Of a DNA stretch of 42,749 nucleotides, positions 1,714-33,668 are shown one piece after another (position 1 is the first letter of the stretch; every line of letters starts with the position of its first letter). Source of the DNA: a virus; the IMG/VR virus record IMGVR_UViG_3300014208_000028, positions 157,123 to 199,871 of that record; one strand, given 5' to 3'. Below the pieces are notes generated by a model that saw only the letters and a program-made list of their open reading frames with translations, had not been told where the DNA came from and did not search any database. Position numbers and translations under genes: made by a program.

Positions 1714-1810
1714 TGTAGGATTAGGCTTCACTGAGGTTCTATTCCTCTGCCTCTCCCGCGATACGGAAGTTTTCACCTAAATTACCTCTCATGCATTTGA
1801 GTATCCTACA
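1714..1810 (-). ncRNA. Candidate structured RNA or 5' leader (multi-stem junction)
   Basis: 8-bp closing stem 1714-1721/1803-1810 enclosing several hairpins; starts 5 nt after the promoter motif. Confidence 0.5.
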
Positions 1811-1815
1811 TATAT

Positions 1816-1824
1816 TTTATAACA
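1816..1824 (-). promoter_or_regulatory. Recurrent phage promoter motif TGTTATAAA
   Basis: Copy of intergenic TG(T/G)TATA(T/A)A motif, just after a terminator. Confidence 0.6.
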
Positions 1825-1848
1825 AAAAATATAATTTATTTTCTAGCT

Positions 1849-1870
1849 AAAAAAAGAGCCTAAGCTCTTT
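1849..1870 (-). terminator. Intrinsic terminator overlapping RNA ligase stop codon
   Basis: AAAGAGC-TTAG-GCTCTTT hairpin running into a T tract on the minus strand. Confidence 0.55.
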
Positions 1871-2987
1871 CCAAATAATTATTACTAACTATTTTTAAAT
1901 TAGCCCGCCCAACATGAGGTACATATTTTTCTTTAATACTTTTAACAACTATTCCCTCTCTTATATTAGCTCCAAATTCACTATTACCTTCGGCCATAGT
2001 AATTAACCTATCATAATCATATTCAAATGTGCCGAATAGGGGAACAGTAGGAATATTATTACTAGTCATTAAGTGATAGCCTTCTTCAGCATCTAACCAT
2101 CTCCCGTCTCTCATAACATCAAAAACAGCCAAGCTAAATTCATCTTGTTTATGATCATATCTTAAATCCTGTATCCATCCATATATTTCTCCATATACAA
2201 CAGTATTAGGATTTTCTTTTAAGAATGCTTTAAGCGCCGGATATTGATGTAAGCATTTCCACCACACACAATCTTCAGAAGGTTTATCCTTTTTATATAA
2301 CCAAGGAATATGGCTATTATAACTAGGATCATCTTTAGACTTCTTCCAAGTAGTATGTGATCCACAATGATAGTCTTTACCATCATAAACAAACCTAGCA
2401 TTAGTACCGTGTATCTTTTCAGTTACCCATACTAATTCTCCCGGCTCAAATGTTTTAGTAGCATATTTTCTAAATGCATCTACATCATATTTAGGAACAG
2501 GGAAATTTAAGCTAGGCCCTTTAGCACACTGAGCTTTAAGCATTTTACCAGACATTCCTGGTCTATATCTTTTAGGCTCAGGAGGATTATAATGTGTTAC
2601 TCCTAATATACCTGCTACATTATCTCGTTCCTTACTACCTTTAGGAGCAGGAACTAAAAGCCCCATACTCCATTCCCCGCGCAAACGTCTAGCCTTAATA
2701 CGAACTAATGTGCCTTTAGGCTTGCCTGAAGGGAGTAAGAATTCGAATAAAGGGTTATTAGTATTAACCATAGAATCGGGAGGAATATAAGCGCCTAATT
2801 GTCCGTCAACCCAATCATCAGTTCTAACTACAGCCTGATAACCGTCAGCCATTACTATAGACAAACTATCAGCGTTAGAATGTTTAAGTAATTTAACTTT
2901 AATTACTTCTACAACATGAGTACTTTTAGTTTCTCTATTAAATAATTTATATAAATATATTTTTATAATATTATACAGTTTTCTCAT
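1860..2987 (-). CDS. RNA ligase, DRB0094/Rnl5 family
   Basis: N-terminal HSNADSL OB-type domain; motif I TEKIHGTN; YGEIYG, VFDV, EGIVVK, LKIVSNNYL. Confidence 0.9.
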   Translation of the reverse strand: MRKLYNIIKIYLYKLFNRETKSTHVVEVIKVKLLKHSNADSLSIVMADGYQAVVRTDDWVDGQLGAYIPPDSMVNTNNPLFEFLLPSGKPKGTLVRIKARRLRGEWSMGLLVPAPKGSKERDNVAGILGVTHYNPPEPKRYRPGMSGKMLKAQCAKGPSLNFPVPKYDVDAFRKYATKTFEPGELVWVTEKIHGTNARFVYDGKDYHCGSHTTWKKSKDDPSYNSHIPWLYKKDKPSEDCVWWKCLHQYPALKAFLKENPNTVVYGEIYGWIQDLRYDHKQDEFSLAVFDVMRDGRWLDAEEGYHLMTSNNIPTVPLFGTFEYDYDRLITMAEGNSEFGANIREGIVVKSIKEKYVPHVGRANLKIVSNNYLERA

Positions 2988-3156
2988 TTTTAACCTCGGA
3001 AATCTTAGTAAATATCATAGTCTCTCTATACGCATGTAATAAATTATGCCATAGCATGTAACTATGAATATCTATTTGTTTAAGTCTAGATCTTATGAAC
3101 TCTCTTCTAACCGCCAAATACATTCTAGCTTCATCTGAAGAATTAAATTTAAACAT
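2971..3156 (-). CDS. Hypothetical protein
   Basis: Short ORF tightly packed in operon. Confidence 0.55.
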   Translation of the reverse strand: MFKFNSSDEARMYLAVRREFIRSRLKQIDIHSYMLWHNLLHAYRETMIFTKISEVKNEKTV

Positions 3157-3157
3157 A

Positions 3158-3631
3158 TTAACAACTCGGCATTTTAGATGGGTCCATATCGCCTAAAAGT
3201 CTATCAAACTCTTTTTCTAATTCTTGCTCTTTAGAAGTCTTATCTTTCTTATTAGCTAAATAGGCGCTGGCTTTAGTAGCTAATAGAATACTAGAGATGC
3301 CCATAGCAGTAGCTACAGCTTCGGTAATAGTAGCAATACTATCTCCCTCTTTCATTAAATTATCTATTTTTTCAAATATAGATAAACAGGCGTCTATATC
3401 TATTTCTCTCATAGAATCTACTAAAGCTGTCCATAAAGGAATTAATAATTCAGTACTTCCCCGCCGAAATAAATAGGCCTGTACATTAATATTATCAGTA
3501 CTAGCTGGAAGTAATGCCATTATAGAAGCAGGAACTTCAACAAACTCATCAGTAATAGTTGTACGATAAAAAGTCTTTTCTTTAGTTAATATAACTAAAG
3601 CATCTTCAATCTTAATATCAGAGATATTCAT
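3158..3631 (-). CDS. Hypothetical protein
   Basis: 157-aa ORF with AAGGA RBS. Confidence 0.75.
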   Translation of the reverse strand: MNISDIKIEDALVILTKEKTFYRTTITDEFVEVPASIMALLPASTDNINVQAYLFRRGSTELLIPLWTALVDSMREIDIDACLSIFEKIDNLMKEGDSIATITEAVATAMGISSILLATKASAYLANKKDKTSKEQELEKEFDRLLGDMDPSKMPSC

Positions 3632-3646
3632 AATAATCCTTTCTTT

Positions 3647-3680
3647 AAAAAATAGAGGGAAGAGTATTCTTCCCCCTATT
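3647..3680 (-). terminator. Intrinsic terminator
   Basis: 13-bp stem AATAGGGGGAAGA/TCTTCCCTCTATT plus T run. Confidence 0.75.
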
Positions 3681-3697
3681 TATTCAGTTATAACTTA

Positions 3698-4537
3698 CTA
3701 CTTAATTTTAGCTTTAGGAATTAGAATGTTTCTAATATCCTGAATGCTCAACTTGCCTAAATCCTTAACCACTTCCGACTTAGAATAAGAAAATACCTGA
3801 GAGACGAAAGACAATAAATTATCTACCGTACAAGATTTTCTAACATTATAAGTATAGAACTCAATAGCTTCAGAAGCATCCCCTTTAGTAGGAAGATTAC
3901 CAAAATCATATTTAGCATTAAGGTCGTCTAAATTAACATTCTCATGCGTAAAAGGACCATTAGCATTATTAAACCCAATAGCCCAAGCCATTGCTACACT
4001 ATGATTCTGATCGGTAATACGATCATCAATGCGCTGCAACATATTTAAAATAGTTTTAATACAAGGGTCCGGATCGGACTCAGTTTTATTATCTACTTTA
4101 GGAGTCTCTTTAGTCTCGGCTTCAACAGCAGCGGTCTTAGGCTTACGCCCACGCTTCGTAGCAGGAACGGCTGTAGGAGCAGGAGTAGACTTAACCTCTT
4201 CCTCAACTTCAACAACCTTTTCACACTTCTCTACAACCTTTCCATTCTTCCAATTATCAAACTGAGTTACGAAAAAATTAACGACATACTTCATCGAGTT
4301 TACAACAGAATAGCCTTTACCGTCAGGAGGGACTAAACCATATTTCATTCCATAAGCAACAGCATCATCTACCGAATCAGGCAATGCTTTCTTAACTATA
4401 TCCTTAAACTCTTCTAAAGATAATTCCTTCTTAGCCTTCAAACGTACAACAATAGTTGGAGTACCAGTCTCATCAAACTGCTTACTCAACGCCTTCTCAA
4501 TCTGCTTCTTCGTTTCATCACTTAAACCTCTGCCCAT
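3698..4537 (-). CDS. Putative DNA-binding protein with AT-hook-like KRGRKPK
   Basis: Own promoter motif and terminator; Pro/Ala/Thr linker with KRGRKPK. Confidence 0.6.
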   Translation of the reverse strand: MGRGLSDETKKQIEKALSKQFDETGTPTIVVRLKAKKELSLEEFKDIVKKALPDSVDDAVAYGMKYGLVPPDGKGYSVVNSMKYVVNFFVTQFDNWKNGKVVEKCEKVVEVEEEVKSTPAPTAVPATKRGRKPKTAAVEAETKETPKVDNKTESDPDPCIKTILNMLQRIDDRITDQNHSVAMAWAIGFNNANGPFTHENVNLDDLNAKYDFGNLPTKGDASEAIEFYTYNVRKSCTVDNLLSFVSQVFSYSKSEVVKDLGKLSIQDIRNILIPKAKIK

Positions 4538-4573
4538 TTATATATCTCCTTTTTGATATTGTTTCGCACATAC

Positions 4574-4582
4574 TATATAACA
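4574..4582 (-). promoter_or_regulatory. Recurrent phage promoter motif TGTTATATA
   Basis: Intergenic copy upstream of the RBS of 3698..4537. Confidence 0.6.
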
Positions 4583-4597
4583 ATAAATACTTAAAAT

Positions 4598-4987
4598 TTA
4601 CAGATACTTATAATAGCTTATAATTGCATCTATATTATCTAATTCGGCTTCCCTTATTTTAATTTGATCTATAATTAAGTTTAGATGTTCATCTCTACTT
4701 AATATTATAGGTTTTTTACATTCTGCTATCTCTTCTATAATCGGCGCGGATATTTTATTAGCAAATCTTTCTTTATTATCTATATAGAAGCACTCTATTA
4801 TTCTAGCCACATTACATGCATGACAATCTAATTCACAATTAGCTTGCAGTTTTAATTGTAAATAATTAGCATTTACAAATCTTTTTAACTCTTCGCGCTC
4901 AGATGTAAGTAGTGTACTTAGTTTTTTCTGTATTAATTCTGAAGTATTCATCGGAACATTTTTCAGATTAATATTTTCATCTGCCAT
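4598..4987 (-). CDS. Hypothetical protein with Cys cluster
   Basis: CELDCHAC...C; AAGGA RBS. Confidence 0.7.
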   Translation of the reverse strand: MADENINLKNVPMNTSELIQKKLSTLLTSEREELKRFVNANYLQLKLQANCELDCHACNVARIIECFYIDNKERFANKISAPIIEEIAECKKPIILSRDEHLNLIIDQIKIREAELDNIDAIISYYKYL

Positions 4988-5525
4988 TATTAGCTTCCTT
5001 ACTATTATCTCGTTTAGAATTTAAATAATGAATTCTAGAATAGTATCCTTGTCTCATGGATAATATATTTGTAGGCACTGTGTTCTTTGTCTTCCAAGCT
5101 CGTCTATCTCTATGAAGATAATTACAAGAATCATATTCTAATATCTCATAAGCCTGGTCGCGTTTTATTATTAAATAAGGATATAAAGCTTTCACTACTG
5201 CTACCGCTCTATCTCCAGTTATTTCTAAAGAATATTCTTTTTTATGATTACTTTTTCTAGGTCTATTATTACTTACAATTCGGCCCCCCAAAACTAATTG
5301 AAGGCGCTCAATTAAAGAATAGAAAGTATTACATACTCTAACGCGGGGATTAAGAGAAAATGAAGGGAGTTCTTCATAATAGTCAGCAGCTAGATAAGCT
5401 TTACTATATTTTTTATCGAAATCTATCGTACCTTCTCCATCTACAATTCCAGCTATATAAGATAACATATTTGCATTTACGTGATTATAATCATACTTAC
5501 TTAAGGTATCCTTCACTATTATCAA
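4977..5525 (-). CDS. LAGLIDADG homing endonuclease (single motif; real start may be MLSYIAG)
   Basis: LSYIAGIVDGEGTI motif; PYLIIKRDQA C-terminal block. Confidence 0.9.
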   Translation of the reverse strand: MIIVKDTLSKYDYNHVNANMLSYIAGIVDGEGTIDFDKKYSKAYLAADYYEELPSFSLNPRVRVCNTFYSLIERLQLVLGGRIVSNNRPRKSNHKKEYSLEITGDRAVAVVKALYPYLIIKRDQAYEILEYDSCNYLHRDRRAWKTKNTVPTNILSMRQGYYSRIHYLNSKRDNSKEANNGR

Positions 5526-5922
5526 TTACCTCCAATGTTATTTCTACACGCTCATCATTACTTTCTTTTTTCATCACACTTATATTAAATATATTCCTAT
5601 CATCTACTCCAATAGATTTAAATACTACATCATGTAATAATTTAATTCTATTATCCACATCTATTTGTTTATAGTATCCTTTAGCAGTCGGGCCGTTACG
5701 AAGAGTTTTAAAATATATAATAGAACTTACTTTAAACATAGTTTTATCATCTACCTTAAACTCAGACATCTGTTCAAAGTATTCTCTACCTATTAAATCT
5801 TTAATATCTCCAGCATACTTTTTACCTATTTTATTTAAAGCGCGGCCACCAGTAGGAAGATTAAAATATAAATGATTGGTACTCGGAGGTACTCCATTTA
5901 TAGTAAAAGTAATATTATTCAT
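5497..5922 (-). CDS. rusA: RusA family Holliday junction resolvase
   Basis: PPSTN; DVDNRIK...D...DDRNI catalytic pattern. Confidence 0.85.
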   Translation of the reverse strand: MNNITFTINGVPPSTNHLYFNLPTGGRALNKIGKKYAGDIKDLIGREYFEQMSEFKVDDKTMFKVSSIIYFKTLRNGPTAKGYYKQIDVDNRIKLLHDVVFKSIGVDDRNIFNISVMKKESNDERVEITLEVIDNSEGYLK

Positions 5923-6202
5923 TACCTAAAACAGTTTTAATTTTTTTAATATCTATTTTAATTGTCTCACACACATCAGAACAATCCATAAGTTTCAAAA
6001 GAAGATTCCCCGTTTTAATAACCTCCTCTATAAGTTCGCCTTTCTCTTCTATAACGGTCGCTCCTCTTAAACAATTACTATCTAAATTAGACAATTCTTT
6101 TTCAATAAAAATTAAATCTCCATGTAAACTATTAATAAGAGATTCAAAAGAGGAACTTTTATCTTTTACTGCATTTACAGTTTTCATATTTTCAATAATC
6201 AT
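5915..6202 (-). CDS. Hypothetical coiled-coil protein
   Basis: 95-aa ORF with AGGAG RBS. Confidence 0.65.
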   Translation of the reverse strand: MIIENMKTVNAVKDKSSSFESLINSLHGDLIFIEKELSNLDSNCLRGATVIEEKGELIEEVIKTGNLLLKLMDCSDVCETIKIDIKKIKTVLGNE

Positions 6203-6212
6203 TATTTCTCCT

Positions 6213-6758: not shown

Positions 6759-7674
6759 TCTTATCTACCTCCAAATCTATATTCTCAATTTGGTCATTAT
6801 GACACTTATCCCAATAATTACAATATTTTTTATTACATAAATAGCTTGTACTGTTTCTAGGAAATAGATTAGCATTAATGCTTTTATCCATTTCTTGAAG
6901 CATAGATACAAATCTTTTTATTTCTTCCAATCCAATTTTAAACGTATCAACAATTACTATCTTAGGTGTTTTAGTTTTTATCAGAAAATCTAGTCGGGCC
7001 TTAAAAAAGGGCATTTTATTTAAAGCATTTATTTCTACTTCAGATAAGTCATGCCTCATTTGTTTAAGCTTTAATAACGCATAAGAGTATCCACACAACT
7101 GCCTATGATAAGGGCCTAATTTAGCCTCTGTGGGCGATTTAGAGGCAGTTTTGAAGTCTATCAGTAATAGTTTATTATCTACTAAATCTATATAACCTTG
7201 TAAAGGTTTACTGACACCCGGAACAGGCACTTCAAACTTATGCTCTACTCTAGAAGGTATTATAGTTTTAGTATAGCCATCATTCATATAAGTACGTAAT
7301 AAAGCTACACCTTTATCTCTTTCTGATACAAAACTAATTTTATCTTTATCTGTTTTATCTCTATTCTCTTCATCCCAATTTATTTTATCTTTACTAGGTT
7401 CATAACTTTCTACAAACTTATCAGACACTTCATTAGCCGATAAATCGGCCCACGAAAATGTCTTCTGATGAAAGTTATGTTCCAGTCCTCTATGAACTGA
7501 ATTTCCAAACTCTAAACTAGCACTAGTTGGAGATGGAATTCGTTCTATATATCTATATTTATATTTAGCAGGACAAGATATATAACAGTCTAATTGAGAT
7601 ATAGAATAGATTTTGGGCGGATTGAAAGTAGTAGGACTACTATTTTCCTCCACCACTTTGATTTCTAAGGGCAT
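6727..7674 (-). CDS. PD-(D/E)XK exonuclease, Cas4/RecB-like with probable Fe-S cluster
   Basis: SISQL..Y.SCP, GNSVH, GYIDL, IDFKT, QLCGY, C-terminal CNKKYCNYWDKC. Confidence 0.88.
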   Translation of the reverse strand: MPLEIKVVEENSSPTTFNPPKIYSISQLDCYISCPAKYKYRYIERIPSPTSASLEFGNSVHRGLEHNFHQKTFSWADLSANEVSDKFVESYEPSKDKINWDEENRDKTDKDKISFVSERDKGVALLRTYMNDGYTKTIIPSRVEHKFEVPVPGVSKPLQGYIDLVDNKLLLIDFKTASKSPTEAKLGPYHRQLCGYSYALLKLKQMRHDLSEVEINALNKMPFFKARLDFLIKTKTPKIVIVDTFKIGLEEIKRFVSMLQEMDKSINANLFPRNSTSYLCNKKYCNYWDKCHNDQIENIDLEVDKSGRLFRKPKS

Positions 7675-9265: not shown

Positions 9266-9268
9266 ATT

Positions 9269-12130: not shown

Positions 12131-12171
12131 TTTAATGTCTATTGACATTAAATATCTATTTGTTCTATACT
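12131..12171 (+). promoter_or_regulatory. Sigma70-type promoter for leaderless tnpB, with inverted repeat over the -35
   Basis: TTGACA 12142-12147, 18 nt, TATACT 12166-12171, ATG at 12178; 9-bp IR 12131-12139/12144-12152. Confidence 0.7.
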
Positions 12172-12177
12172 TGAATT

Positions 12178-13266
12178 ATGAAATTAGTAGTAAATATTAA
12201 GTTACTTCCAACTTCTGAACAACACACTATATTAAAAACTACCTTAGAAGTAGCAAACGACGCCTGTAATTATTTATCTAGTGAGGCCTTCAAAAGTAAA
12301 ATTTTTGGGCAATATAGTTTACATAAATTATATTATTTAAAAATCAAAGAAAGATTTAATCTTTCTGCACAAATGGCAGTCCGTTCTATAGCTAAGGTGG
12401 CTGATACTTATAAAAAAGACCATAAAACTATTAGAAAATTTCGTACTTACTCCGGCCAACCTTATGACGATAGAATTTTAAGATTTACTGAAAATCAAGT
12501 TTCTATCTGGACCGTAAACGGTAGAATTAAAATTCCCTATCAAATGGGAGAATACCAACGAAAACTATTTCCTTTTCGTAAAGGAGAGTCTGATTTATTA
12601 TACATCAACAATATTTTTTATCTAACTTGTGTTTGTGATATTGATGACCCTGAATTAATTAAAACTTCTAAAGTATTAGGAGTAGATTTTGGAATAGTTA
12701 ATATTGCCGTAGATTCTAATGGAAAAGAATATAGTGGTAAAGCTATTAATAGAAATAGATGTAAATATTCTCATCGTCGTAAAAATCTTCAGAAAAAACA
12801 TACTAGGTCAGCTACTCATAAACTTAAGAAATTATCTGGTAAACAAGCAAGATACCAAAAAGATGTAAATCATTGCATTTCTAAAGCTATCGTGTCAGAT
12901 GCTAAACGCACTTCTTCTATAATTGCCTTAGAGAATCTCAAAGGAATTACCAAGAAGGTTACGGCTAATAAGCAACAGCGGTCACGATTGTCTAATTGGG
13001 GATTTTATCAATTAAGAACTTTCATAGAATACAAAGCTAAACAGGCAGGTATTCCCGTAATATTAGTAAATCCTCGATATACCTCTCAAGAATGCCCTAT
13101 GTGTAGACACATCTCTAAATCTAATAGAAAAACTAGAGATAGTTTTATTTGTGTTAAGTGCGGTTTCGCTGGCCCTGCTGACACAATCGCAGCACTAAAT
13201 ATTAGTGCTAGGGCTGTCGTCAATCAGCCGATGGTAGCGAACACTTGTTTAGCTACAAACTTATAA
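12178..13266 (+). CDS. tnpB: RNA-guided endonuclease TnpB (IS200/IS605 family), no tnpA nearby
   Basis: RuvC D (GVDFG), E (IALENL), D (ADTIAALNI); CPMC/CVKC zinc finger. Confidence 0.95.
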   Translation: MKLVVNIKLLPTSEQHTILKTTLEVANDACNYLSSEAFKSKIFGQYSLHKLYYLKIKERFNLSAQMAVRSIAKVADTYKKDHKTIRKFRTYSGQPYDDRILRFTENQVSIWTVNGRIKIPYQMGEYQRKLFPFRKGESDLLYINNIFYLTCVCDIDDPELIKTSKVLGVDFGIVNIAVDSNGKEYSGKAINRNRCKYSHRRKNLQKKHTRSATHKLKKLSGKQARYQKDVNHCISKAIVSDAKRTSSIIALENLKGITKKVTANKQQRSRLSNWGFYQLRTFIEYKAKQAGIPVILVNPRYTSQECPMCRHISKSNRKTRDSFICVKCGFAGPADTIAALNISARAVVNQPMVANTCLATNL

Positions 13267-14206: not shown

Positions 14207-14511
14207 CTTACCATATCTTCTTCATATAAAGCTGGCTTATGTATAGTTTTATCATCATCTATAACACAAGTACGAATAAAAAATCCTATCTCTTCCCACT
14301 CATATCCTAAAGGATCTATAAAATTTGGGTGCTTTACAATAGTTGTATAGTTAAAAGGAGAAGTAGTCTCTTTAATATGTTCTCCTGATACTGTTTTAAA
14401 AATATGTATAACTAATTCTTTCCAAATAGAATGAGCTCCTGATAAAGAATAAGATTCATAGTTAGGAGGATAGTCACATATCCAATATTTAGATTTTCCT
14501 TTATATAACAC
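14191..14511 (-). CDS. Hypothetical protein
   Basis: GTG-start ORF directly after polA. Confidence 0.55.
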   Translation of the reverse strand: MLYKGKSKYWICDYPPNYESYSLSGAHSIWKELVIHIFKTVSGEHIKETTSPFNYTTIVKHPNFIDPLGYEWEEIGFFIRTCVIDDDKTIHKPALYEEDMVRWSKD

Positions 14512-19699: not shown

Positions 19700-21118
19700 T
19701 CACCCACTATTAAAATTAGTTTCTCTAATCTTATTTAATTTTTCTTCTACATTATCTGTAGACTTACCCTTACCCTTGCTTTTCCCATTCATAGCTTCGG
19801 CGCTTATAGTAGCGTCTAATTCACTTACACCTAATCTATCAGCACTTAAGAACTTCTTCATATTTAACTTATCGCTATATTTAACATCCATATTTTCAGC
19901 TAATAGACAATTTATAACAAAAGCTTTTTCTTCACCTTCTCTTATAGCTTTAATTACTACAGCTATTTCTTTTTCTTTATAATCTCTAAATATTCTAAGT
20001 ACTACATCAGCATCTCTAGTAAAGCTGGCACTATAACCTATATCATCGTATTTACTAGCACTATCTCCTCCACGATTTGCTTGAGTAGTAATTACTACAG
20101 GTATATTTTTTATTTGAGCTAATTCTTTTAAATCCTGAGTAATATGGGTTATATTTTTATAATCTATTGTACGTTCTTTAGTTCTATCGTCTGCAAGTAG
20201 ATATACCCCATCTACAAATACTATATCAGGTCTATATTCATCTACTTTAGCTAAGATACTACTTACAGATACTGCCCCTCCCGCCGCGCCACGACCATCA
20301 GAAATTATAAACTTACCTACACTAGGAGTATCAGCTTTTTCTTTACTATCTATAGCCATCTTTTCTAATTCTTTACGAACTCTAATTTCTTCTTCAGTAT
20401 CTAATTTACCTTTACTGAATTGTCCATAATTAACTTTAGCATATATGGCTACTGCTCTTTTAGCTATTTGTTCAGAACTCATTTCTTTAGTAATTACTAA
20501 TACTCTTTTTCCACACTGTTTATAAAGATGGATAGCCATATAAAGCATTACCCAACTTTTACAGCTTTTAGGAGAGCCGTAGATAACGATTAAGTTCTGA
20601 GGATGCATACCTCCAGTCTCTTCACTTAAAAACGGCCAGGGATATGGAAGCCCTGTTACACCCCTAAATAATTTAGTAGATTGATAAGTATCTAATATAG
20701 GTCTAACTTGATCGGTTAAGTTAATATCATTAGGAGAGAACTTCCATTTAGACTGTAATTCTCTAGCCCCCTTGGTCATAGAGTTTAAAGCATCTTTAGG
20801 ACTAGTATCGGCTAAAGAAGTTACCTTTTGAAGTAGCTTACCCATCTCTATTTCAAAGTTAGATTGTACTACTTGTTCACATAAAGCTTCTATAGTATCT
20901 GTAGATTTTACAGGTTTAAATTCTTTTATTTTTTCTTGTATTAATTCAGCACTTGGCACCCCGCCAAATCTATTACGATGTTCTAATATAATTCCGTAAA
21001 CTCGGCGGGCAATAATATCTTTAAAATGATCTCCTTGAATTCCATATTTGATTAAAGGAATATCTGGATTGTTACTTTCTATAATCTTACTTAATAATCT
21101 TATCTCCCAATTAGCCAA
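19700..21118 (-). CDS. DnaB-like replicative helicase
   Basis: TGLPYPW, TGGMHP, GSPKSCKS, KEMS, VFVDG, TQANR, DADVV. Confidence 0.92.
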   Translation of the reverse strand: MANWEIRLLSKIIESNNPDIPLIKYGIQGDHFKDIIARRVYGIILEHRNRFGGVPSAELIQEKIKEFKPVKSTDTIEALCEQVVQSNFEIEMGKLLQKVTSLADTSPKDALNSMTKGARELQSKWKFSPNDINLTDQVRPILDTYQSTKLFRGVTGLPYPWPFLSEETGGMHPQNLIVIYGSPKSCKSWVMLYMAIHLYKQCGKRVLVITKEMSSEQIAKRAVAIYAKVNYGQFSKGKLDTEEEIRVRKELEKMAIDSKEKADTPSVGKFIISDGRGAAGGAVSVSSILAKVDEYRPDIVFVDGVYLLADDRTKERTIDYKNITHITQDLKELAQIKNIPVVITTQANRGGDSASKYDDIGYSASFTRDADVVLRIFRDYKEKEIAVVIKAIREGEEKAFVINCLLAENMDVKYSDKLNMKKFLSADRLGVSELDATISAEAMNGKSKGKGKSTDNVEEKLNKIRETNFNSG

Positions 21119-24827: not shown

Positions 24828-24906
24828 AAAAAAGAAGAAGAGAAGATCCTGAAAGGAAAATGTCTTTTGCAAAGGAGGTTTGAAAATGACGACTTCTCTT
24901 CTTCAA
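24828..24906 (-). ncRNA. Candidate antisense sRNA with two anti-RBS/anti-AUG elements
   Basis: Promoter motif 24911-24919; perfect 12-bp IR 24834-24845/24893-24904; U6 tail; 47-nt loop. Confidence 0.6.
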
Positions 24907-24910
24907 TTAT

Positions 24911-24919
24911 TATATAACA
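24911..24919 (-). promoter_or_regulatory. Recurrent phage promoter motif TGTTATATA
   Basis: Intergenic, 6 nt before the sRNA stem. Confidence 0.6.
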
Positions 24920-24946
24920 TATTATTTTAGAAAATTGCGGACCAAA

Positions 24947-25413: not shown

Positions 25414-25489
25414 TGGTGGACCCTGCATGATTCGAACATGCGACAGTTCGGTTATGAGCCGAGTGCGCTACCAACTGCGCCAAGGGTCC
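25414..25489 (-). tRNA. tRNA with CAT anticodon, probably Ile2 (lysidine type) rather than Met
   Basis: 76-nt cloverleaf, acceptor GGACCCT/AGGGTCC, loop CTCATAA, TTCGAAT, encoded CCA; C4-G69 and C5-G68 as in Ile2. Confidence 0.88.
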
Positions 25490-25496: not shown

Positions 25497-25573
25497 TGGT
25501 AGTCCCGGTTGGAATTGAACCAACAGCCTGTCGGTTATAGGCCGACTGCTCGAACCAATTGAGCTGCGAGACT
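25497..25573 (-). tRNA. tRNA-Ile(TAT), non-canonical (C8, C33)
   Basis: 77-nt cloverleaf, acceptor AGTCTCG/CGGGACT, anticodon arm GTCGG-CCTATAA-CCGAC, TTCAATT, encoded CCA. Confidence 0.82.
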
Positions 25574-25624: not shown

Positions 25625-25870
25625 TTATATCTCAATCTTCCCCACCACACTCTTTTCTAACCAAATTCTTGGAGTAGAATTATATTTATCTATAATTTGC
25701 TTAATTTCTAAGCTCGATATGTCATAATTATGCGGCCTATATTTCGGAATTTCATAACAAAATATTTTCCATACAATGCCATTATTAATGAATATAATAT
25801 CCATCTTTTTTTGAACACGGATCATGTCTGATAGGGATTCTATAAAAATTTCTTTAAATATGCTTTGCAT
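25625..25870 (-). CDS. Hypothetical protein
   Basis: AGGAG RBS. Confidence 0.55.
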   Translation of the reverse strand: MQSIFKEIFIESLSDMIRVQKKMDIIFINNGIVWKIFCYEIPKYRPHNYDISSLEIKQIIDKYNSTPRIWLEKSVVGKIEI

Positions 25871-25906
25871 TTATTAAATTACTCCTAATATGTTATATTA
25901 TATTTC

Positions 25907-26030
25907 GCTGGCTATTTTATCCTATTTTCACCAGCAGATCCGAGTGTTTGCAACTTCGTTGTCAGTCCATTAAGTATCGTACTTTTCAGTTTTCCATACT
26001 TAACTTCAATCCGGCAACTAGGACTCGGCA
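25907..26030 (-). ncRNA. Candidate structured RNA (long irregular hairpin plus second hairpin)
   Basis: CCGAGT/ACTCGG closing stem, TTAAGTAT/ATACTTAA inner stem, GCTGG/CCAGC hairpin; promoter motif 26036-26044. Confidence 0.5.
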
Positions 26031-26068
26031 TAATATTTATACCATAAAAAATAAAAAAATATCATACT

Positions 26069-26104
26069 AAAAAATTTGGAGGAGAATTAGTCCTCCAATT
26101 TTTT
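26069..26104. terminator. Probable bidirectional intrinsic terminator
   Basis: TTGGAGGA/TCCTCCAA stem flanked by A and T runs. Confidence 0.7.
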
Positions 26105-26106
26105 AT

Positions 26107-26388: not shown

Positions 26389-26439
26389 TATAATCTCCTT
26401 TTTAAGTTTGCAAATAGTATTACTATTTAGTACTTTTTA

Positions 26440-27537
26440 TTAACCTTCTCGTATAACTTTAACAAATTTACAGGCCTTGGCCCTAATTTTTTGAGGATAT
26501 TGAGGATGTCCTCCAAAACACCTACAATCACTTAATTTTGCTCTAACTAAAAGTATTTTGTATTTCACATTTTTAGGTATAAATTCTAGTAGGCCGCTTT
26601 CACTGTCTGCTAAGTGTAATCCAGGCCCGCACTCACCTGTAAATGACTCATTCCAATCAGGACAAATAATCTCTTTTCTCGTAATATAATTTATTTTTCC
26701 AGTATAGAAATCTGTCCCATTATATTTTACTGCTTTATAAAAATATCCGTACCCTTTTACAATTCTAATTCCTTTTAAAGCGCACCAATCATCTATATTT
26801 GATGGATATTTCGGATTAATAATTATGGCTTTATTAGAAATTAATTTTATTTTAGAATTTCCATATTTAATTATAGACGTATAATCCCTAGCCTCGACAT
26901 GTGCGCTTTCCCAAGCCACGACATGTGCGCTTTCCCAAGCCTCGACATGTGCGCTTCCCCTAGCCACGACATGTGCGCTTCCCCTAGCCTCGACATGTGC
27001 GCTTTCCCTAGCCTCGACATGTGCGCTTTCCCAAGCCTCGACATGTGCGCTTTCCCAAGCCACGACATGTGCGCTTTCCCAAGCCTCGACATGTGCGCTT
27101 CCCCTAGCCTCGACATATGCGCTTCCCCTAGCCACGACATGTGCGCTTCCCCTAGCCACGACATGTGCGCTTTCCCTAGCCTCGACATGTGCGCTTTCCC
27201 AAGCCTCGACATGTGCGCTTCCCCAAGCCACGACATGTGCGCTTCCCCTAGCCACGACATGTGCGCTTCCCCTAGCCACGACATGTGCGCTTTCCCTAGC
27301 CTCGACATGTGCGCTTTCCCAAGCCTCGACATGTGCGCTTTCCCAAGCCACGACATGTGCGCTTCCCCAAGCCGCGACATGTGCACTTCCCCTAGCCTCG
27401 ACATGTGCGCTTTCCCAAGCCTCGACATGTGCGCTTCCAGAAACTAATATCCTACTATCTCCAGCAGCTATAATACTTCCTTCATTAATTTCATGATACC
27501 CTGTATCATATCTTTTTATATCACTCATCTTTAACAT
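26440..27537 (-). CDS. Octapeptide-repeat (probable beta-solenoid) protein with C-terminal CGPGLH domain
   Basis: 23 x AHV(E/V)A(W/R)(E/G)S, then YKAV...CGPGLHLA...KIRA. Confidence 0.85.
   Translation of the reverse strand: MLKMSDIKRYDTGYHEINEGSIIAAGDSRILVSGSAHVEAWESAHVEARGSAHVAAWGSAHVVAWESAHVEAWESAHVEARESAHVVARGSAHVVARGSAHVVAWGSAHVEAWESAHVEARESAHVVARGSAHVVARGSAYVEARGSAHVEAWESAHVVAWESAHVEAWESAHVEARESAHVEARGSAHVVARGSAHVEAWESAHVVAWESAHVEARDYTSIIKYGNSKIKLISNKAIIINPKYPSNIDDWCALKGIRIVKGYGYFYKAVKYNGTDFYTGKINYITRKEIICPDWNESFTGECGPGLHLADSESGLLEFIPKNVKYKILLVRAKLSDCRCFGGHPQYPQKIRAKACKFVKVIREG
26887..27438. repeat. 24-bp tandem repeat, about 23 copies
   Basis: Unit gcc(t/a)cgacatgtgcgctt(t/c)ccc(a/t)a. 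Confidence 0.97.
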
Positions 27538-27815: not shown

Positions 27816-27816
27816 A

Positions 27817-28676: not shown

Positions 28677-28778
28677 AATTAATACCTCCTTTTAGTTTTA
28701 TAATAGAAAATAAAATACATCTATCAATTTCTTCGATTTTATTTTTAAACTTATAAAGAGTGGGGGGAGTATACTTCT

Positions 28779-28997
28779 TCATAACTCCTCCTCATTTATA
28801 AACTTAAAATCATATCTAAATAAACTTATACCTCTATTACTATTAATATCATTAGGAGGAATTCTAATTATGTATCTATCGGTTTTGCCGTGATATACAA
28901 GTAATTCTCCTTTTTCCCCAGCCGCCGCAAAATTACCATCCATATCTGTTACATCTTTAGTTACTTGAATATATTCTTTCATATTAATCTCCTTCAA
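28779..28997 (-). CDS. Hypothetical protein (start probably MKEYIQ)
   Basis: AAGGAG RBS; promoter motif 29001-29009. Confidence 0.6.
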   Translation of the reverse strand: MKEINMKEYIQVTKDVTDMDGNFAAAGEKGELLVYHGKTDRYIIRIPPNDINSNRGISLFRYDFKFINEEEL

Positions 28998-29046
28998 AGT
29001 TATATAACAAAAAATAATGTTTTTTGGCGGGCCAAAATGTATAAAT

Positions 29047-29197
29047 AAAAAAGAGAGGGGTGCCTCTCTAATTGATTCCTAGAAATCCTTCCTTACTTTG
29101 TAAGGATTTCTTGCCCGTCGAATTTTGGGGCACTCAATTGGAGGAGATGTAAGGAACACTCCAAAAGTTTTGGTAGAGAGGAATCACTTCTCTACAT
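29047..29197 (-). ncRNA. Candidate about 150-nt multi-hairpin RNA with own promoter and terminator
   Basis: Promoter 29202-29210; four hairpins; terminator AGAGAGG-CACC-CCTCTCT plus T run; long-range complementarities. Confidence 0.7.
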
Positions 29198-29220
29198 TAT
29201 TTATATAACAAATAATTTAA

Positions 29221-29652
29221 TTATTTTTCACTAATAAAATTTTCTACTAAATCCTCTTCTTTTATATTAATAGTCGGTTCTACATTTTTCTCAATCTGAT
29301 ACTTACGCTTCTCTTCTACTAATTGTATAATATTATTTTTCTCGACATCTGTTAATTGTTTTCCAGAGGGGTTTAATAATCTATAAGAAGATTTTATTCC
29401 TCCATAATTATTCCCATATTTTTTAGCCCCCCCTTCTATATCCTTTAAACACTCATCACAATAAACATTAATTTTGAGGGGGTCTAAAAATGGGGCGGGG
29501 CCGTTAGATACTTGTAAGTAAGTTTTCGGTAATAATTTATCGCATAAAGTACATGATTCTTGAAGTAAAAATACAAAACTCATATCCTTATTTATTTCAT
29601 GAATTTCATTATCTTTAGTGACATACCATTCTTTAACTTGTGTTAAACTCAT
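29221..29652 (-). CDS. Hypothetical Zn-binding protein
   Basis: CTLC...CDEC. Confidence 0.65.
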   Translation of the reverse strand: MSLTQVKEWYVTKDNEIHEINKDMSFVFLLQESCTLCDKLLPKTYLQVSNGPAPFLDPLKINVYCDECLKDIEGGAKKYGNNYGGIKSSYRLLNPSGKQLTDVEKNNIIQLVEEKRKYQIEKNVEPTINIKEEDLVENFISEK

Positions 29653-30083
29653 TCATTCTCCTTTTTATCTTCAACTTCTTTCCACATTCTTATTACATCA
29701 TCTATAGATACTCTATCTTTTAGAAACTCTATACTATCTTTTATTTTCTTTTCATATCCTCTACAAGAGGCTACTGATCCAAGCCACTCACTGTATTTAT
29801 CTTCCGGATCTTCACCATAATTCCCATACTCTTTTCTAATATGTGGAAATGGATCAGGTTCCCCACAAAGTTCGGCGGCTTTATTGCATATTTTACTAGC
29901 AGTAATGACTTCTCTATCAAATCTTTTTGAGCGCCAAATATGGTATTTGATAGCTCTATTTTGTAGAGTCTGTAATTCCCTATCACTTATATCTTCTTTT
30001 TTAATTAATCTCTCAACTATCCAAGTCAAAGTATTTACTGAATGCCTAAGTTCTACTACCTCTCTTTCTAAATCACTGTCCAT
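29649..30083 (-). CDS. Hypothetical protein
   Basis: 144-aa ORF in operon. Confidence 0.7.
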   Translation of the reverse strand: MDSDLEREVVELRHSVNTLTWIVERLIKKEDISDRELQTLQNRAIKYHIWRSKRFDREVITASKICNKAAELCGEPDPFPHIRKEYGNYGEDPEDKYSEWLGSVASCRGYEKKIKDSIEFLKDRVSIDDVIRMWKEVEDKKENE

Positions 30084-30085
30084 TT

Positions 30086-30286
30086 TTATTTTCCTTTTGT
30101 TATCTCATCAATAGCATTAGATATATCAGTTCTAACGTGTTTTTCTTCATCTGTTAATGAAGGGATATGATGGCAAAGTTTACTCATTAAATCGCAAAAA
30201 TCTACACAAACTAAAGATTTATAATGCAGCCCGCCCAATTCCGTATTTAATATATATCCATTATCTTTACGTTCTATACTAGTCAT
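30086..30286 (-). CDS. Hypothetical protein
   Basis: AGGAG RBS. Confidence 0.55.
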   Translation of the reverse strand: MTSIERKDNGYILNTELGGLHYKSLVCVDFCDLMSKLCHHIPSLTDEEKHVRTDISNAIDEITKGK

Positions 30287-30506
30287 CTGTTTCTCCTAAT
30301 GTAAATTGTTCTATTCCCATTAACTTATATACTTCCATCCAAGTAGCTCCACAAGTAATACAATATATATCTTGATAGTATATATGACTATTATAATCAG
30401 TCTCTCCAGAATCTACACTATCTAATTCTTCTGATCCACAATTAGGACATATCGGATAATTCTTTTTTAAATATTCTTTAGATAATTTATCGTCAAAATT
30501 ATTCAT
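30279..30506 (-). CDS. Zinc-ribbon protein
   Basis: CPNCGS...CITCGATW. Confidence 0.7.
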   Translation of the reverse strand: MNNFDDKLSKEYLKKNYPICPNCGSEELDSVDSGETDYNSHIYYQDIYCITCGATWMEVYKLMGIEQFTLGETDD

Positions 30507-31831
30507 AAACTTATATGCTTAACCTCCAATTTTAATGCTTCCATAACCTTTCCCATTTTTATACATAATGCTTTCATCGGTCCTATATTAATATCTTCTA
30601 TAATATATATCTCAGGACTTTTCTTTGTCTCACATTTTCTAGTAATTCTTCCTACAGCTTGTCTAATACGTCCTTCATCTGACATAGGAGTAAGTATTAT
30701 CATCGAATCAAGATCAGCTTGATCAAGCCCTCGTTTAGATAATCTACTTATAGCAAATATAACTTTACAATTTCTTAACATTTCCATACGCTCATCTACA
30801 TCTACTTCTGCTATACATAGCCCCGAATTTTCATATTCATCGTGTAAATCTTTTAATTGTTGCTTACGCTCCCCAAGTACAAGTATTTTTCTACCTTCTT
30901 TTAAACGGCGGTTAATTAAATCTTTTATTAAATTATTCCTTTCTTTATCTAAACTAGCATCAGTATATAATTTAGCAAAATTAAATTTATCCGCCCACCG
31001 CAAAATATAATCTTTTATTGGAGGATTATAAGTACTTTTTACAAAAAATGCTTTCGGATATTGCATAAGTTCCTGGTTAGTAAAAAGTATATTACCCATA
31101 TGATATTCAAATACTTTTTCAGCCCCATCTTTTCGTTTGGGAGTAGCGGACATGCCTAATCTATCTCCAATAAAAATATCAGAAGCTTTAGAATAATGAG
31201 GTGTAGCCACCTCGTCGCACTCATCCCAAATAGTAAATCCAAAATACTTACGAATTTTATAATTAAAATCTTCGCGCCTAGACGAAAGTGTTTGTATCAT
31301 AGCTATAGTAATAGGATGCTCATAATCACAAACATCGCCTTTAATTATCCCCACGCTTTCTACTTCTAAAAATTCCGCTATTCTATCTTTCCATTGTTGT
31401 AATAACTGTCCAGTATTTACTACTATAAGTGTAGGTACTTTACGTCTATATGCTTCTTGTAAAGCTATAACTGTTTTTCCAGAACCACATCCCAATACTA
31501 GTATTCCTTCTTTATCATTTATAGCTTCATAACTTTGTAACTGCATACTTCCCCGCCAACTTACTTTAGATTCTATTTTTATAGTCTCATATTTTTTGGG
31601 GCGTAAATCTATAACTTCCATTTTAGAATTTAGTTTTTCAATAGGTATAAATCGGCGAGGCACTATAATATGATTTTCTAATTCAGTATATTGAGTAAAT
31701 TTTTCACCGCTGGAATGTTCAAATGTTAAAGCTTGTTTAATACTTTCTATATGAACTTTAGATTTAGGAATATATAATCCCTCTCTAATATATAAAGTAT
31801 CTTTATCAGATGGTTTTAAATAGAAACTCAT
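30503..31831 (-). CDS. Superfamily 2 DNA helicase (UvsW/ResIII-like)
   Basis: GCGSGKT, DECD, SATP.R.DG, GLD...LD, QAVGRITR. Confidence 0.92.
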   Translation of the reverse strand: MSFYLKPSDKDTLYIREGLYIPKSKVHIESIKQALTFEHSSGEKFTQYTELENHIIVPRRFIPIEKLNSKMEVIDLRPKKYETIKIESKVSWRGSMQLQSYEAINDKEGILVLGCGSGKTVIALQEAYRRKVPTLIVVNTGQLLQQWKDRIAEFLEVESVGIIKGDVCDYEHPITIAMIQTLSSRREDFNYKIRKYFGFTIWDECDEVATPHYSKASDIFIGDRLGMSATPKRKDGAEKVFEYHMGNILFTNQELMQYPKAFFVKSTYNPPIKDYILRWADKFNFAKLYTDASLDKERNNLIKDLINRRLKEGRKILVLGERKQQLKDLHDEYENSGLCIAEVDVDERMEMLRNCKVIFAISRLSKRGLDQADLDSMIILTPMSDEGRIRQAVGRITRKCETKKSPEIYIIEDINIGPMKALCIKMGKVMEALKLEVKHISL

Positions 31832-32061
31832 TAATCGTGTTTATATCCTTCAGGATATACTATAGATATTCTTGGAAAAGAGTCCACTTCTAAATTTCTA
31901 ACTTGCCAAGTATTAAATAAATCCAACTGTTCTCTACTACAGGTCATAGATAATTCTTTCAAAAAATATCTCATAGCTTTAAAATATCCTGCTCTATCTC
32001 CTTCAGGATCTCCTGTTTCCCAATCTATAATAGCATTACCATCTATAACTTTATGAGACAT
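31831..32061 (-). CDS. Hypothetical protein
   Basis: GGAGG RBS, 1-nt overlaps. Confidence 0.6.
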   Translation of the reverse strand: MSHKVIDGNAIIDWETGDPEGDRAGYFKAMRYFLKELSMTCSREQLDLFNTWQVRNLEVDSFPRISIVYPEGYKHD

Positions 32062-32300
32062 TACTCTACCTCCAAATTATCTTTCCAAAAAACTTTTCCA
32101 TAAATACATCGATCATACATTTTTTCTATAATATCTGTACATTTAGATTTCATAGTAGTTTCATCGTTAGGAAAATCTATACAGGCATCGTTGTAACAAA
32201 TTACCCCTACAGTTTTCTTATCTTTAGAATCTATAATTAAATTAATATCGTCGCATATTCCGCCCAAACCACATTTTTGTTCCATTTTCAAAATCTCCAT
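32061..32300 (-). CDS. Hypothetical protein
   Basis: 79-aa ORF. Confidence 0.55.
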   Translation of the reverse strand: MEILKMEQKCGLGGICDDINLIIDSKDKKTVGVICYNDACIDFPNDETTMKSKCTDIIEKMYDRCIYGKVFWKDNLEVE

Positions 32301-32328
32301 TTAATAAACTGCCAAGACTCTATTATAA

Positions 32329-32487
32329 TTAACTTACAGAGGCTGTTTTACTATTTTTAAACTCTGTTATTAAATACTCTCCTAAAGCTACAAATGCTGC
32401 GGCTGCCATAATTCCGGCTGCCAATTTAATCTTTTTAAACTCCTCTGTCTTAGAAAACTCATTGTACATACCCTTTATTTTTTCCAT
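32329..32487 (-). CDS. 52-aa peptide with one hydrophobic helix (not in ORF track)
   Basis: AAGGAG RBS; MEKIKG...KKIKLAAGIMAAAAFVALGEYLI...; promoter variant at 32524-32532. Confidence 0.6.
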   Translation of the reverse strand: MEKIKGMYNEFSKTEEFKKIKLAAGIMAAAAFVALGEYLITEFKNSKTASVS

Positions 32488-32654
32488 CCTTATTTACTCC
32501 TTTTGTCATGCTTATGCATAAACTATATACCTAAAAACATTATACTATACTTCAAACAATTTTTTAGCGGGCCGAAAATTTTTCGGTCCTTAATTAAAAA
32601 GAAAACGAGTCTTGGCAATATCTATATACCACAATATTTTAATTTTTTTCATAT

Positions 32655-32739
32655 AAATAAGAAAATGCTCGGAAGGGAAACTTGTTCGTCCGCATCCGAC
32701 CGCATTTTCTTTTATCGCAAACTCAAGGTGTCTCTTCAT
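32655..32739 (-). ncRNA. Candidate small RNA (5' single-stranded leader plus hairpin)
   Basis: Promoter motif 32744-32752; 10-bp IR 32659-32668/32702-32711 plus 5-bp inner stem. Confidence 0.5.
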
Positions 32740-32871
32740 ATATTTTATACCATATTTTTTAAGAAATTTTCATTTAATCTTATACTAAAAAATTAGCTGT
32801 AAAGCACCGCTTTACTTCACAACTAATTTTTACCCGACATGAAGTAGTTGAAAGCTATCCACTACTCCAAT

Positions 32872-33138
32872 CTATTTTTTGGTTCGAAAGGAACTACATA
32901 CTTTTCCCTTTTCAGGCCAAGGACCACAATCGGGATGTCCATCTACACAGTTCCTACAACACCTCTCTTCTTTATATTGAGAATATGTCTGCCTTCGCAT
33001 ATACCATCTCCAATACATTTTCCCATCTTTCAAGAGATAGTAAAAGTTAAACTCGCTTCCAATAGTTGAAGACTTCAAAACTATAAGTGACATAATTACC
33101 CAAAACCAAAGATTGGGAATTGGTTCAAAAGACAACAT
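32872..33138 (-). CDS. Small membrane-anchored Cys-rich protein
   Basis: AGGAGG RBS; N-terminal hydrophobic stretch, CCRNC...C...C. Confidence 0.6.
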   Translation of the reverse strand: MLSFEPIPNLWFWVIMSLIVLKSSTIGSEFNFYYLLKDGKMYWRWYMRRQTYSQYKEERCCRNCVDGHPDCGPWPEKGKVCSSFRTKK

Positions 33139-33152
33139 TTCTTCCCTCCTTT

Positions 33153-33347
33153 TTAAAATCTGAGAGTATTAGCAATATCCTTATCACATATTTTGCAAGT
33201 ATGGTATGGATCATCGTCAGAGTACATATCTATTTGAGCCTTGTTTAAGAGTGCTTCCTTCACTGCACAGGCAAAACAGATTGGTTCAAGATTTTTTTCA
33301 TGATCTTTTGTAACTTTAAAATAGACGTTTATCCTACCTTCCATCAA
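33153..33347 (-). CDS. Small Zn-finger protein
   Basis: CFAC...CKIC. Confidence 0.6.
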   Translation of the reverse strand: MMEGRINVYFKVTKDHEKNLEPICFACAVKEALLNKAQIDMYSDDDPYHTCKICDKDIANTLRF

Positions 33348-33356
33348 TCCCTCCTT

Positions 33357-33611
33357 TTAAATGGTTATGTATCCCGTGCCTTTACCATCTTTAGGCCACC
33401 GAGAATCTTGAGAATGCATCCACTCATGCATCAAATATGTTTTCCCTTTTTTAGTAATGAGTAGAGCACCACAATTACAGCAATCAGAAGTACAGTCATT
33501 AACTTGTTCTTCGGTCAAACCCGGAAATCTAATTACTTTAAAACAATTAGGACAAGTAGTTGTAAATCCCTTTCTTTTGAACCGCGCCAATTTGAACTGT
33601 GCTGAAGTCAT
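33357..33611 (-). CDS. Small Zn-ribbon protein
   Basis: CPNC...CCNCG; AGGAGG RBS; promoter motif 33637-33645. Confidence 0.65.
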   Translation of the reverse strand: MTSAQFKLARFKRKGFTTTCPNCFKVIRFPGLTEEQVNDCTSDCCNCGALLITKKGKTYLMHEWMHSQDSRWPKDGKGTGYITI

Positions 33612-33668
33612 TTATATTCCTCCTTTCCTCTATAATTATATAACAAAAAATTTTTATTTTTAACAAGT

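Follow-up and report, generated by a model that had tools for sequence, protein, structure and literature searches.

What does a short motif that recurs between the genes of an uncultured 200-kb phage do, which RNA polymerase would read it, and what are the short stretches without an open reading frame (ORF) that it heads? These questions are raised by the window analysed here, a 42,749-nt stretch (positions 157,123 to 199,871) that forms the last 42.7 kb of the 199,871-bp IMG/VR virus record IMGVR_UViG_3300014208_000028, in which a preliminary description had proposed that the 9-mer TG(T/G)TATA(T/A)A marks a phage-specific promoter class expressing at least five undescribed non-coding RNAs (ncRNAs). 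Here it is well supported by the sequence that the 9-mer is the extended -10 portion of a complete bipartite promoter of sigma-70 / sigma-A type with a degenerate -35 element. As the best explanation, held at slightly better than an even chance, we propose a sigma-70-type promoter set that is read by the host early in infection and heads mRNAs, tRNAs and ORF-less units.

Motif statistics and promoter architecture

The window holds 13 copies of the 9-mer, all on the minus strand, which carries almost all phage genes; none of 100 dinucleotide shuffles of the window reached this number (mean 4.9, maximum 12). Across the whole genome (32.5% GC) the motif occurs 7 times on the forward and 40 times on the reverse strand, against 10 and 17 for a reversed-pattern control, and more than half of the reverse copies (22 of 40) are intergenic, against the 7.7% of the DNA that a crude ORF map leaves between genes (coding share, 92-94%). 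These counts bear out the strand bias and the intergenic enrichment. All ten sites listed in the preliminary description are exact and lie on the minus strand. It had also noted two copies inside ORFs, at 7579 and 14502; both are present, and a third had been missed:

7579-7587, minus strand, intragenic copy of the 9-mer
14502-14510, minus strand, intragenic copy of the 9-mer
19911-19919, minus strand, intragenic copy of the 9-mer, inside the DnaB-like ORF

All three fail the full-length promoter matrix. This position matrix, iterated across the genome, gave 57 sites, of which 42 are intergenic and 48 lie on the gene-sense strand; the base frequencies reported here are those of the 42 intergenic sites. 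The sites begin with a -35-like element, tGAAAA, at about -36 to -31 (G-34 in 78%, with a T before it and an A-run after it; A-31 in 95%), followed by an A/T-rich spacer of 18 nt that ends in T-R-T-G at -17 to -14 (T-17 83%, T-15 83%, G-14 96%) and by the hexamer TATAWA at -12 to -7, in which T-12, A-11, T-10 and A-9 each reach at least 95%. Seven nucleotides past the hexamer stands G or A in 93% of sites, the predicted +1, from which we infer the start sites used below. The earlier remark that the sites lack TTGACA is literally correct, but the aligned sequences do hold the conserved -35-like element at its 18-nt spacing. Only 4 intergenic sites have an exact TTGAC with a -10-like hexamer after it, and the motif shades smoothly into canonical TTGACT/TATAAT forms, for example at genome position 98059. 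At sites without the TG, the hexamer tends to TATAAT, a compensation that reads as the additive behaviour expected of sigma-70-type promoters.

The architecture also appears to be conserved, there with T at -7, in a relative phage represented by a 204,929-bp Joint Genome Institute (JGI) contig (40% GC), whose sigma factor is 52% identical to the one encoded by the present phage. In the 20.7 kb of that contig surveyed for promoters, the intergenic gene-sense sites read TGnTATAAT; three were seen by eye, all with G-34 and T-7, and two of them pass the matrix. Promoter function of the motif is well supported, because the sequence gives intergenic enrichment, a bias to the gene-sense strand, a fixed distance to short-leader genes and tRNAs, and a bipartite architecture that recurs in the relative. 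Because bacterial sigma-70 / sigma-A promoters with an extended -10 have this geometry, the motif would not represent a new kind of promoter.

A genome-wide search for a second promoter class by k-mer enrichment returned TGTTATA as the top 7-mer upstream of genes, together with the Shine-Dalgarno (SD) sequence and T-runs, and no further promoter-like word. A T4-late-like TATAAATA class was considered and rejected: only 18 of its 125 copies are intergenic, many overlap the main motif, and the TG and the -35-like element, neither of which T4 late promoters (gp55) require, are conserved. About ten promoters carry a short all-G/C block (GGCCCGC, GCGGGGCC, GCGC) that abuts the A-run of the -35-like element (window 29030-29045, 32565-32580 and 24935-24945; genome 952/999, 81845/81895, 126928/126980 and 152590). 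At divergent promoter pairs this block lies at the centre of symmetry; it could serve as an operator or as a variant -35.

Units headed by the promoters

The approximately 42 intergenic promoters would drive three kinds of unit, namely short-leader mRNAs, tRNA units and units without an ORF. About 25 sites have an SD-led ORF 9-40 nt beyond the predicted start. Five tRNA units stand behind the motif (genome 9836, 21493, 25162 and 47381; window 25593) in a genome with ten tRNAs; the window copy precedes tRNA-Ile and tRNA-Met, in agreement with the earlier observation that one copy heads the tRNAs. About 14 promoters, roughly a third of the set, precede 70-310 nt without an SD-led ORF, often closing in a canonical intrinsic terminator. 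These ORF-less units are plausible predicted small RNAs or leaders, and the share of promoters given to non-coding units appears unusually large. Of the 11 promoters in the window, 10 are concentrated at 24.9-33.6 kb, separated by terminators. The window promoters, with their position weight matrix (PWM) scores, and the units that they would head are as follows:

1809-1845, minus strand, promoter P1816, ctaGAAAA..TTTTTGTTATAAA from -36 to +1, +1 G at 1809, PWM 32.5, intergenic
1683-1809, minus strand, unit A, apparent 127-nt leader of the 78-aa ORF 1446-1682
4567-4603, minus strand, promoter P4574, PWM 24.3, 30-nt leader to the 279-aa ORF 3698-4537
24904-24940, minus strand, promoter P24911, +1 G at 24904, PWM 29.7
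24828-24904, minus strand, unit B, predicted 77-nt RNA with a 12-bp clamp GAAGAAGAGAAG/CUUCUCUUCUUC from +1, then U6, and CCUCC in the loop
25586-25622, minus strand, promoter P25593, PWM 24.6, heading tRNA-Ile(UAU) 25497-25573 and tRNA-Met(CAU) 25414-25489
26029-26065, minus strand, promoter P26036, PWM 26.3, directly past a bidirectional terminator at 26076-26098
25871-26029, minus strand, unit C, apparent 159-nt structured 5' leader of the 81-aa ORF 25625-25870, without a small ORF
28994-29030, minus strand, promoter P29001, PWM 23.5, 12-nt leader to the ORF 28779-28997
29195-29231, minus strand, promoter P29202, +1 G at 29195, PWM 30.6
29046-29195, minus strand, unit D, predicted RNA of about 150 nt with a 5' hairpin from +1, internal hairpins and an exposed CUCCUCC
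32737-32773, minus strand, promoter P32744, +1 G at 32737, PWM 34.0
32647-32737, minus strand, unit E, about 90 nt without an ORF, with a 10-bp hairpin (AGAAAAUGC.../...GCAUUUUCU) and then a U-rich tail
32616-32652, minus strand, promoter P32623, +1 G at 32616, PWM 28.3
32310-32616, minus strand, unit F, predicted transcript of about 307 nt from P32623 with the 52-aa ORF 32329-32487
32532-32568, minus strand, third tandem promoter, PWM 15.8
33630-33666, minus strand, promoter P33637, PWM 28.1, 19-nt leader to the ORF 33357-33611

For the third tandem promoter, the matrix favours TAGTATAAT at 32539-32547 and not AGGTATATA at 32524-32532, which had been put forward as a variant copy.

The absence of ORFs, the terminators and the folding scores of these units are observed directly; what the RNAs would do is predicted from them. 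The cleanest case in the window is unit D, a predicted stand-alone promoter-to-terminator small-RNA gene. It ends in an intrinsic terminator (AGAGAGG-CACC-CCUCUCU-U6) with the next promoter directly after, contains no ORF, has no Rfam match and folds with z-scores of -3.7 and -5.0 against dinucleotide and mononucleotide shuffles, respectively, the two schemes used for fold scores. The same succession of start and terminator without an ORF is found in units B and E and in genome units 13352, 54785, 56099, 152567 and 154320; a similar unit was obtained at genome 81845. Units B, C and D, together with several from other parts of the genome, have fold z-scores between -2.6 and -5.7, and with mononucleotide shuffles B, D, 9836, 25162, 54785, 56099 and 152567 all stand at -4 or below. 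Units B and E would be short RNAs released at a hairpin followed by a U-run. Unit E scores -2.6 over its hairpin part and -1.5 as a whole; unit B, which has no SD-led ORF, scores -3.3 (dinucleotide) and -5.7 (mononucleotide).

Unit B also offers a specific predicted target, with the following coordinates:

window 24843-24860, minus strand, against genome 29,472-29,489, predicted B-target pairing, the two sides 152 kb apart

Its nucleotides 48-62 would pair without mismatch, over 15 nt, with the SD region of a 72-aa ORF (genome 29,249-29,467), and the duplex widens to 18 bp (nucleotides 45-62) with one G-U and two A-U pairs. This pairing is a single post-hoc hit and is to be taken as a lead; besides it, the antisense target search returned only low-complexity matches or matches outside translation initiation regions. 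The CCUCC-bearing loops of B and D could, more generally, pair with ribosome-binding sites.

At four sites the base-paired stems had been reported to start where the transcript would, and they do coincide with the predicted +1 (1809, 24904, 26028/9 and 29195). Such helices most probably would shield the 5' end against 5'-end-dependent RNases. Genome-wide, a strong +1 helix was found in 8 of 43 promoters versus 7.3% of random positions (weighted test, P=0.011).

Not all units need be free RNAs. Because units A and C reach their ORFs without a terminator, they look like structured 5' leaders. In A, a domain of about 95 nt is closed from +1 by GUAGGAU/AUCCUAC; the unit may include a 23-codon SD-led ORF, the sole exception in the search of the ORF-less set for such ORFs. 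In C, a domain of about 90 nt closed by CCGAGU/ACUCGG is followed by a second hairpin without a U-run (z of -2.7 dinucleotide and -2.9 mononucleotide). Unit B may act as a stand-alone small RNA (sRNA); because no promoter lies between its U-run and the 11-kb replication operon that runs from 24731 to 13308, it may also be an attenuator leader that limits read-through into that operon. In unit F, the first 10 nt (GCCAAGACUC) perfectly complement 32311-32320, just past the 52-aa ORF, in a 5'-3' clamp; the 11-mer, present twice in the window versus 0.01 expected, forms a perfect inverted pair (32607-32617 and 32310-32320) that brackets this ORF.

These features favour a competing account in which the ORF-less units are cis elements of mRNAs (5' stabilizer hairpins, attenuator leaders or tandem-promoter spacers) and not trans-acting sRNAs, and we regard it as a serious contender that falls somewhat short of even odds. 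Besides the continuity of A and C with their ORFs and of B with the replication operon, the clamp of 10-11 perfect pairs extends the 5'-end theme to an mRNA with an ORF, E and F are situated between tandem promoters, and 8 of the 11 sRNAs of phage 201phi2-1 come from 5' untranslated regions (UTRs) (PMC11512511). D and genome units 54785, 56099, 152567 and 13352 do not fit this account: each has a strong terminator and then a fresh promoter, and therefore cannot be a leader. As to the at least five undescribed ncRNAs proposed earlier, five ORF-less structured units without an Rfam match do follow promoters in the window; of these, A and C look like leaders, and B is possibly an attenuator.

Several results weigh against the units as a set of functional RNAs. 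The fold of unit A is no better than shuffles (z of -1.5). The excess of +1 helices across the genome is weak, and an unweighted test for 5' clamps at +1 across the promoters gave no enrichment. CCUCC occurs 3 times in the units versus 0.97 expected, which is not significant (P=0.075). No paralogue was found among the units, and Rfam covariance models at permissive thresholds gave no match for the window units or for those elsewhere. The earlier remarks on composition and kinship proved accurate: the units have 35-45% GC versus 32.5% for the genome, the paralogue comparison finds only promoter cores in common, and the Rfam check matches only tRNAs, with nothing over units A-F. A helicase-based search of viral and metagenome contigs gave no close relative, the nearest helicase homologues being about 52% identical and on Logan contigs (50-52% in runs SRR23086399, SRR23086384 and ERR10503143), and a 41%-identical relative is without the motif. 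A megablast comparison of 8-9 kb of window sequence with 50,697 phage records gave no match, the best tblastn matches to the window DNA polymerase in the phage collection lie below 30% identity, and exact-word scans of viral contigs for the cores of D and B and for the extended promoter returned nothing. With the nearest relative at about 52% protein identity and no DNA homologue, none was close enough for a covariation comparison of the units.

Three further observations concern the tRNA units. At genome 9,724-9,821 (minus strand), a 98-nt domain with an 8-10-bp helix closing from +1 adjoins the upstream side of tRNA-Arg(UCU), with which it shares one promoter-to-terminator unit. An 8-bp 5' hairpin stands ahead of tRNA-Leu at genome 25049-25133. 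In the window, the tRNA-Ile with the rare UAU anticodon sits 7 nt from the CAU tRNA, and one motif promoter serves both.

The polymerase that would read the promoters

The preliminary description had proposed looking elsewhere on the contig for a phage sigma factor or RNA polymerase (RNAP), and both are present:

genome 74,767-75,483, plus strand, sigma-70-family factor of 238 aa, the lone plus-strand gene in a minus-strand region
genome 143,739-152,123, minus strand, fused beta-beta' RNAP, a single 2794-aa ORF with Rpb2 domains and then Rpb1 domains

The polymerase ORF includes a LAGLIDADG intein. The sigma factor matches Pfam Sigma70_r3 with 28.2 bits (cut-off, 25.3), Sigma70_r4 weakly, and PHROG 351, 'RNA polymerase sigma factor', at 9e-8. 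Among the Foldseek matches listed for its model (ranks 1-49; mean predicted local distance difference test score (pLDDT), 78.7), all are sigma factors aligned over nearly the whole length, so that the modelled protein would have sigma-2, sigma-3 and sigma-4 domains for the -10, TG and -35 elements. Searches of the genome for the Sigma70_r2 and sheath families gave no match; those for a T7-type RNAP and Gp23 were likewise blank, as were the control genomes, so that these blanks mean little.

A complex model that pairs residues 1-160 of sigma with residues 1180-1560 of the polymerase scored 0.81, and the best of 3 controls 0.00; this mark is attained by 58 of 80 solved complexes and by 2 of 110 mismatched pairs. 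At least 65% of the contacts recur between runs, the partners have a pLDDT of at least 77, and the modelled interface joins a helical segment of the polymerase (residues 1338-1387) to sigma residues 26-66. The contact between sigma-2 and the beta' clamp helix is the textbook holoenzyme contact, and the score, which shows likeness, may reflect memory of solved holoenzymes rather than binding of this copy.

We put it slightly above an even chance that the host holoenzyme reads the motif, at least early in infection. In T4, T5 and SPO1 the early promoters are read by the host polymerase, and the host primary-sigma RNAP would likewise read the motif promoters at the start of infection here. The phage polymerase gene lies behind two motif copies, which fits host-driven early expression. 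The promoter cluster at 24.9-33.6 kb resembles the early regions of large virulent phages and would be the early region of this one. PHROG annotation of polymerase-adjacent genes, meant to date the promoters, was uninformative.

Two findings pull the other way. Of the sites, 72% have A and 27% have T at position -7, where primary sigma factors bind a T that they flip out (PMC7598289). Moreover, the phage encodes its own sigma-70-family factor and beta-beta' polymerase, and only one promoter class is detectable, so that the phage may have a holoenzyme of its own. It is accordingly possible, but clearly the less probable course, that a phage machine, the phage sigma together with the phage beta-beta' polymerase or the host core, reads tGAAAA-N18-TGnTATAWA; the class would then be phage-specific by its reader, though of bacterial design. 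This reading draws on a sigma that is real by Sigma70_r3, PHROG 351 and Foldseek and would have the domains for all three elements, on a fused polymerase that is modelled in complex with it, on an A-7 that is atypical for a primary sigma and on the single promoter class. The sigma gene of the relative phage is preceded by a promoter of another, canonical form, TTGACG-17-TATAAT, as if it were host-read; its predicted +1 falls on the ATG, so that the mRNA would be leaderless. Set against this, a polymerase gene behind the motif makes the scheme circular unless the enzyme is injected, and an N-terminal leader shared by other phage proteins (MxRIxQIEKLA) is absent from both the polymerase and the sigma factor. 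The motif also grades into TTGACT/TATAAT, and the relative has TATAAT at 3 of 3 intergenic sites. Finally, the promoters of the two insertion-sequence-borne TnpB genes, at window 12142-12180 and 33674-33711 (plus strand), share the geometry of the motif promoters (TTGACA-18-TATACT and TTGATT-17-TGnTATATT).

Both TnpB promoters have their predicted +1 at the A of the ATG, which would make both mRNAs leaderless. The two TnpB genes of the window are 27% identical to each other, and an attempt to identify the host through TnpB failed, the best match being to Pectinatus at 43% identity. A weak RAGATH-18-like match at window 34825-34866, at the 3' end of the second TnpB, is probably part of the guide RNA of that TnpB.

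A wider version of phage control, in which the lineage runs a self-contained beta-beta' and sigma machine on the motif and devotes about a third of its promoters to non-coding RNAs, seems unlikely to us; the phage-run RNA regulatory layer that it proposes counts the tRNAs and about 14 structured RNAs, some with anti-Shine-Dalgarno loops. That the units are decayed early-gene remnants or neutral spacers, transcribed without function, is improbable: the lack of homologues, paralogues and Rfam matches and the shuffle-like folds of A and E would suit it, but the genome is 92-94% coding and yet about 14 units keep a promoter and often a terminator, and seven of the units have mononucleotide z-scores of -4 or below.

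Under the reading that we prefer, the host polymerase would transcribe three kinds of unit from the motif promoters, D being a self-contained small-RNA gene, B and E short RNAs, and A and C structured leaders. In the literature searched, no promoter analysis of the multisubunit-RNAP phage lineage was found, and the promoter map offers an initial transcription plan for one uncultured 200-kb member of this lineage. The ORF-less units form a candidate list of phage small RNAs and leaders. Two points are of interest, the large share of promoters for non-coding units and the possibility of a virus-owned sigma-dependent holoenzyme; if the phage sigma does act with the phage polymerase at these promoters, it would be the first case known to us of a true sigma-70-family factor working with a viral beta-beta' enzyme.

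Genome context and known systems

The replication genes of the window comprise a family A DNA polymerase, a DnaB-like helicase, RecA, an SF2 helicase and ligases. Downstream of P1816 lies an island of 54% GC (window 50-1682, minus strand) within the 33% GC genome. It holds five tandem small ORFs of 61-148 aa, all ending in ...AALKR(A/E)GR, with FIVEACNNYE common to two, and these P1816-driven ORFs look like an imported or diversifying paralogue family. At window 26440-27537 (minus strand), a 365-aa protein without a Pfam match is built over residues ~30-210 of ~24 tandem 8-residue repeats, (G/E)SAHV(E/V)A(W/R), encoded by DNA of 60% GC. The leader M-x-R-(I/L)-x-Q-(I/L)-E-K-L-A opens several proteins, at genome 104577, 107388, 107651, 131311, 140686 and 143488 (minus strand). 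GC-rich 15-nt-based tandem repeats with periods of 30, 45 and 75 occur at window 42392-42699 and at genome 1-192; because those at the two record ends match mutually at 88-98% identity, the 'linear' record probably wraps round, and the genome would be circular or circularly permuted.

Bacterial extended -10 promoters read TGnTATAAT, and Gram-positive promoters carry a 'TRTG' -16 region. The phage promoters resemble those of sigma-70 / sigma-A in the TG at -15/-14, T-17, the invariant A-11, the G-containing -35-like element and the purine start. They differ in A-7, which stands in most sites where the -10 hexamer consensus is T-12ATAAT-7 (PMC7598289), in tGAAAA instead of TTGACA, and in that the phage has a sigma of its own.

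Jumbo phages that encode RNAP carry a conserved, AT-rich -10-centred early motif of about 10 nt upstream of early operons, with later classes invisible (PMC7598289). The present set is like such early sets of large virulent phages in its one conserved motif before many short, early-looking operons and in that no later class is visible. Phages of the phiKZ/AR9 type encode two multisubunit polymerases, both split and one of them packaged in the virion, and lack a sigma-70-like factor, whereas the present phage has one fused beta-beta' gene and a true sigma-70-family protein and thus lacks the split subunits of that type.

For the RNAs, the tRNA region of phage T4 produces the stable RNAs C and D, small and structured and made from tRNA transcription units and promoters. 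They share with the units described here small size, structure and, in part, a place beside tRNAs, although the majority of the present units have no tRNA beside them. Giant phage 201phi2-1 provides the nearest precedent, with 11 mapped sRNAs, of which 3 are intergenic, 8 are formed by premature termination in 5' UTRs, and one of the 11 is located just upstream of a tRNA; the sRNAs of 201phi2-1 and phiKZ were mapped by ONT-cappable-seq, and one is conserved across genera (PMC11512511). Those sRNAs are supported by transcript ends, whereas the present units are predicted from one genome; the two sets agree in units of less than 250 nt, a start followed by a near terminator, a mix of intergenic and 5'-UTR positions and one unit before a tRNA (here genome 9836). 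On present evidence, neither the promoter type nor the kind of RNA is out of the ordinary among large virulent phages.

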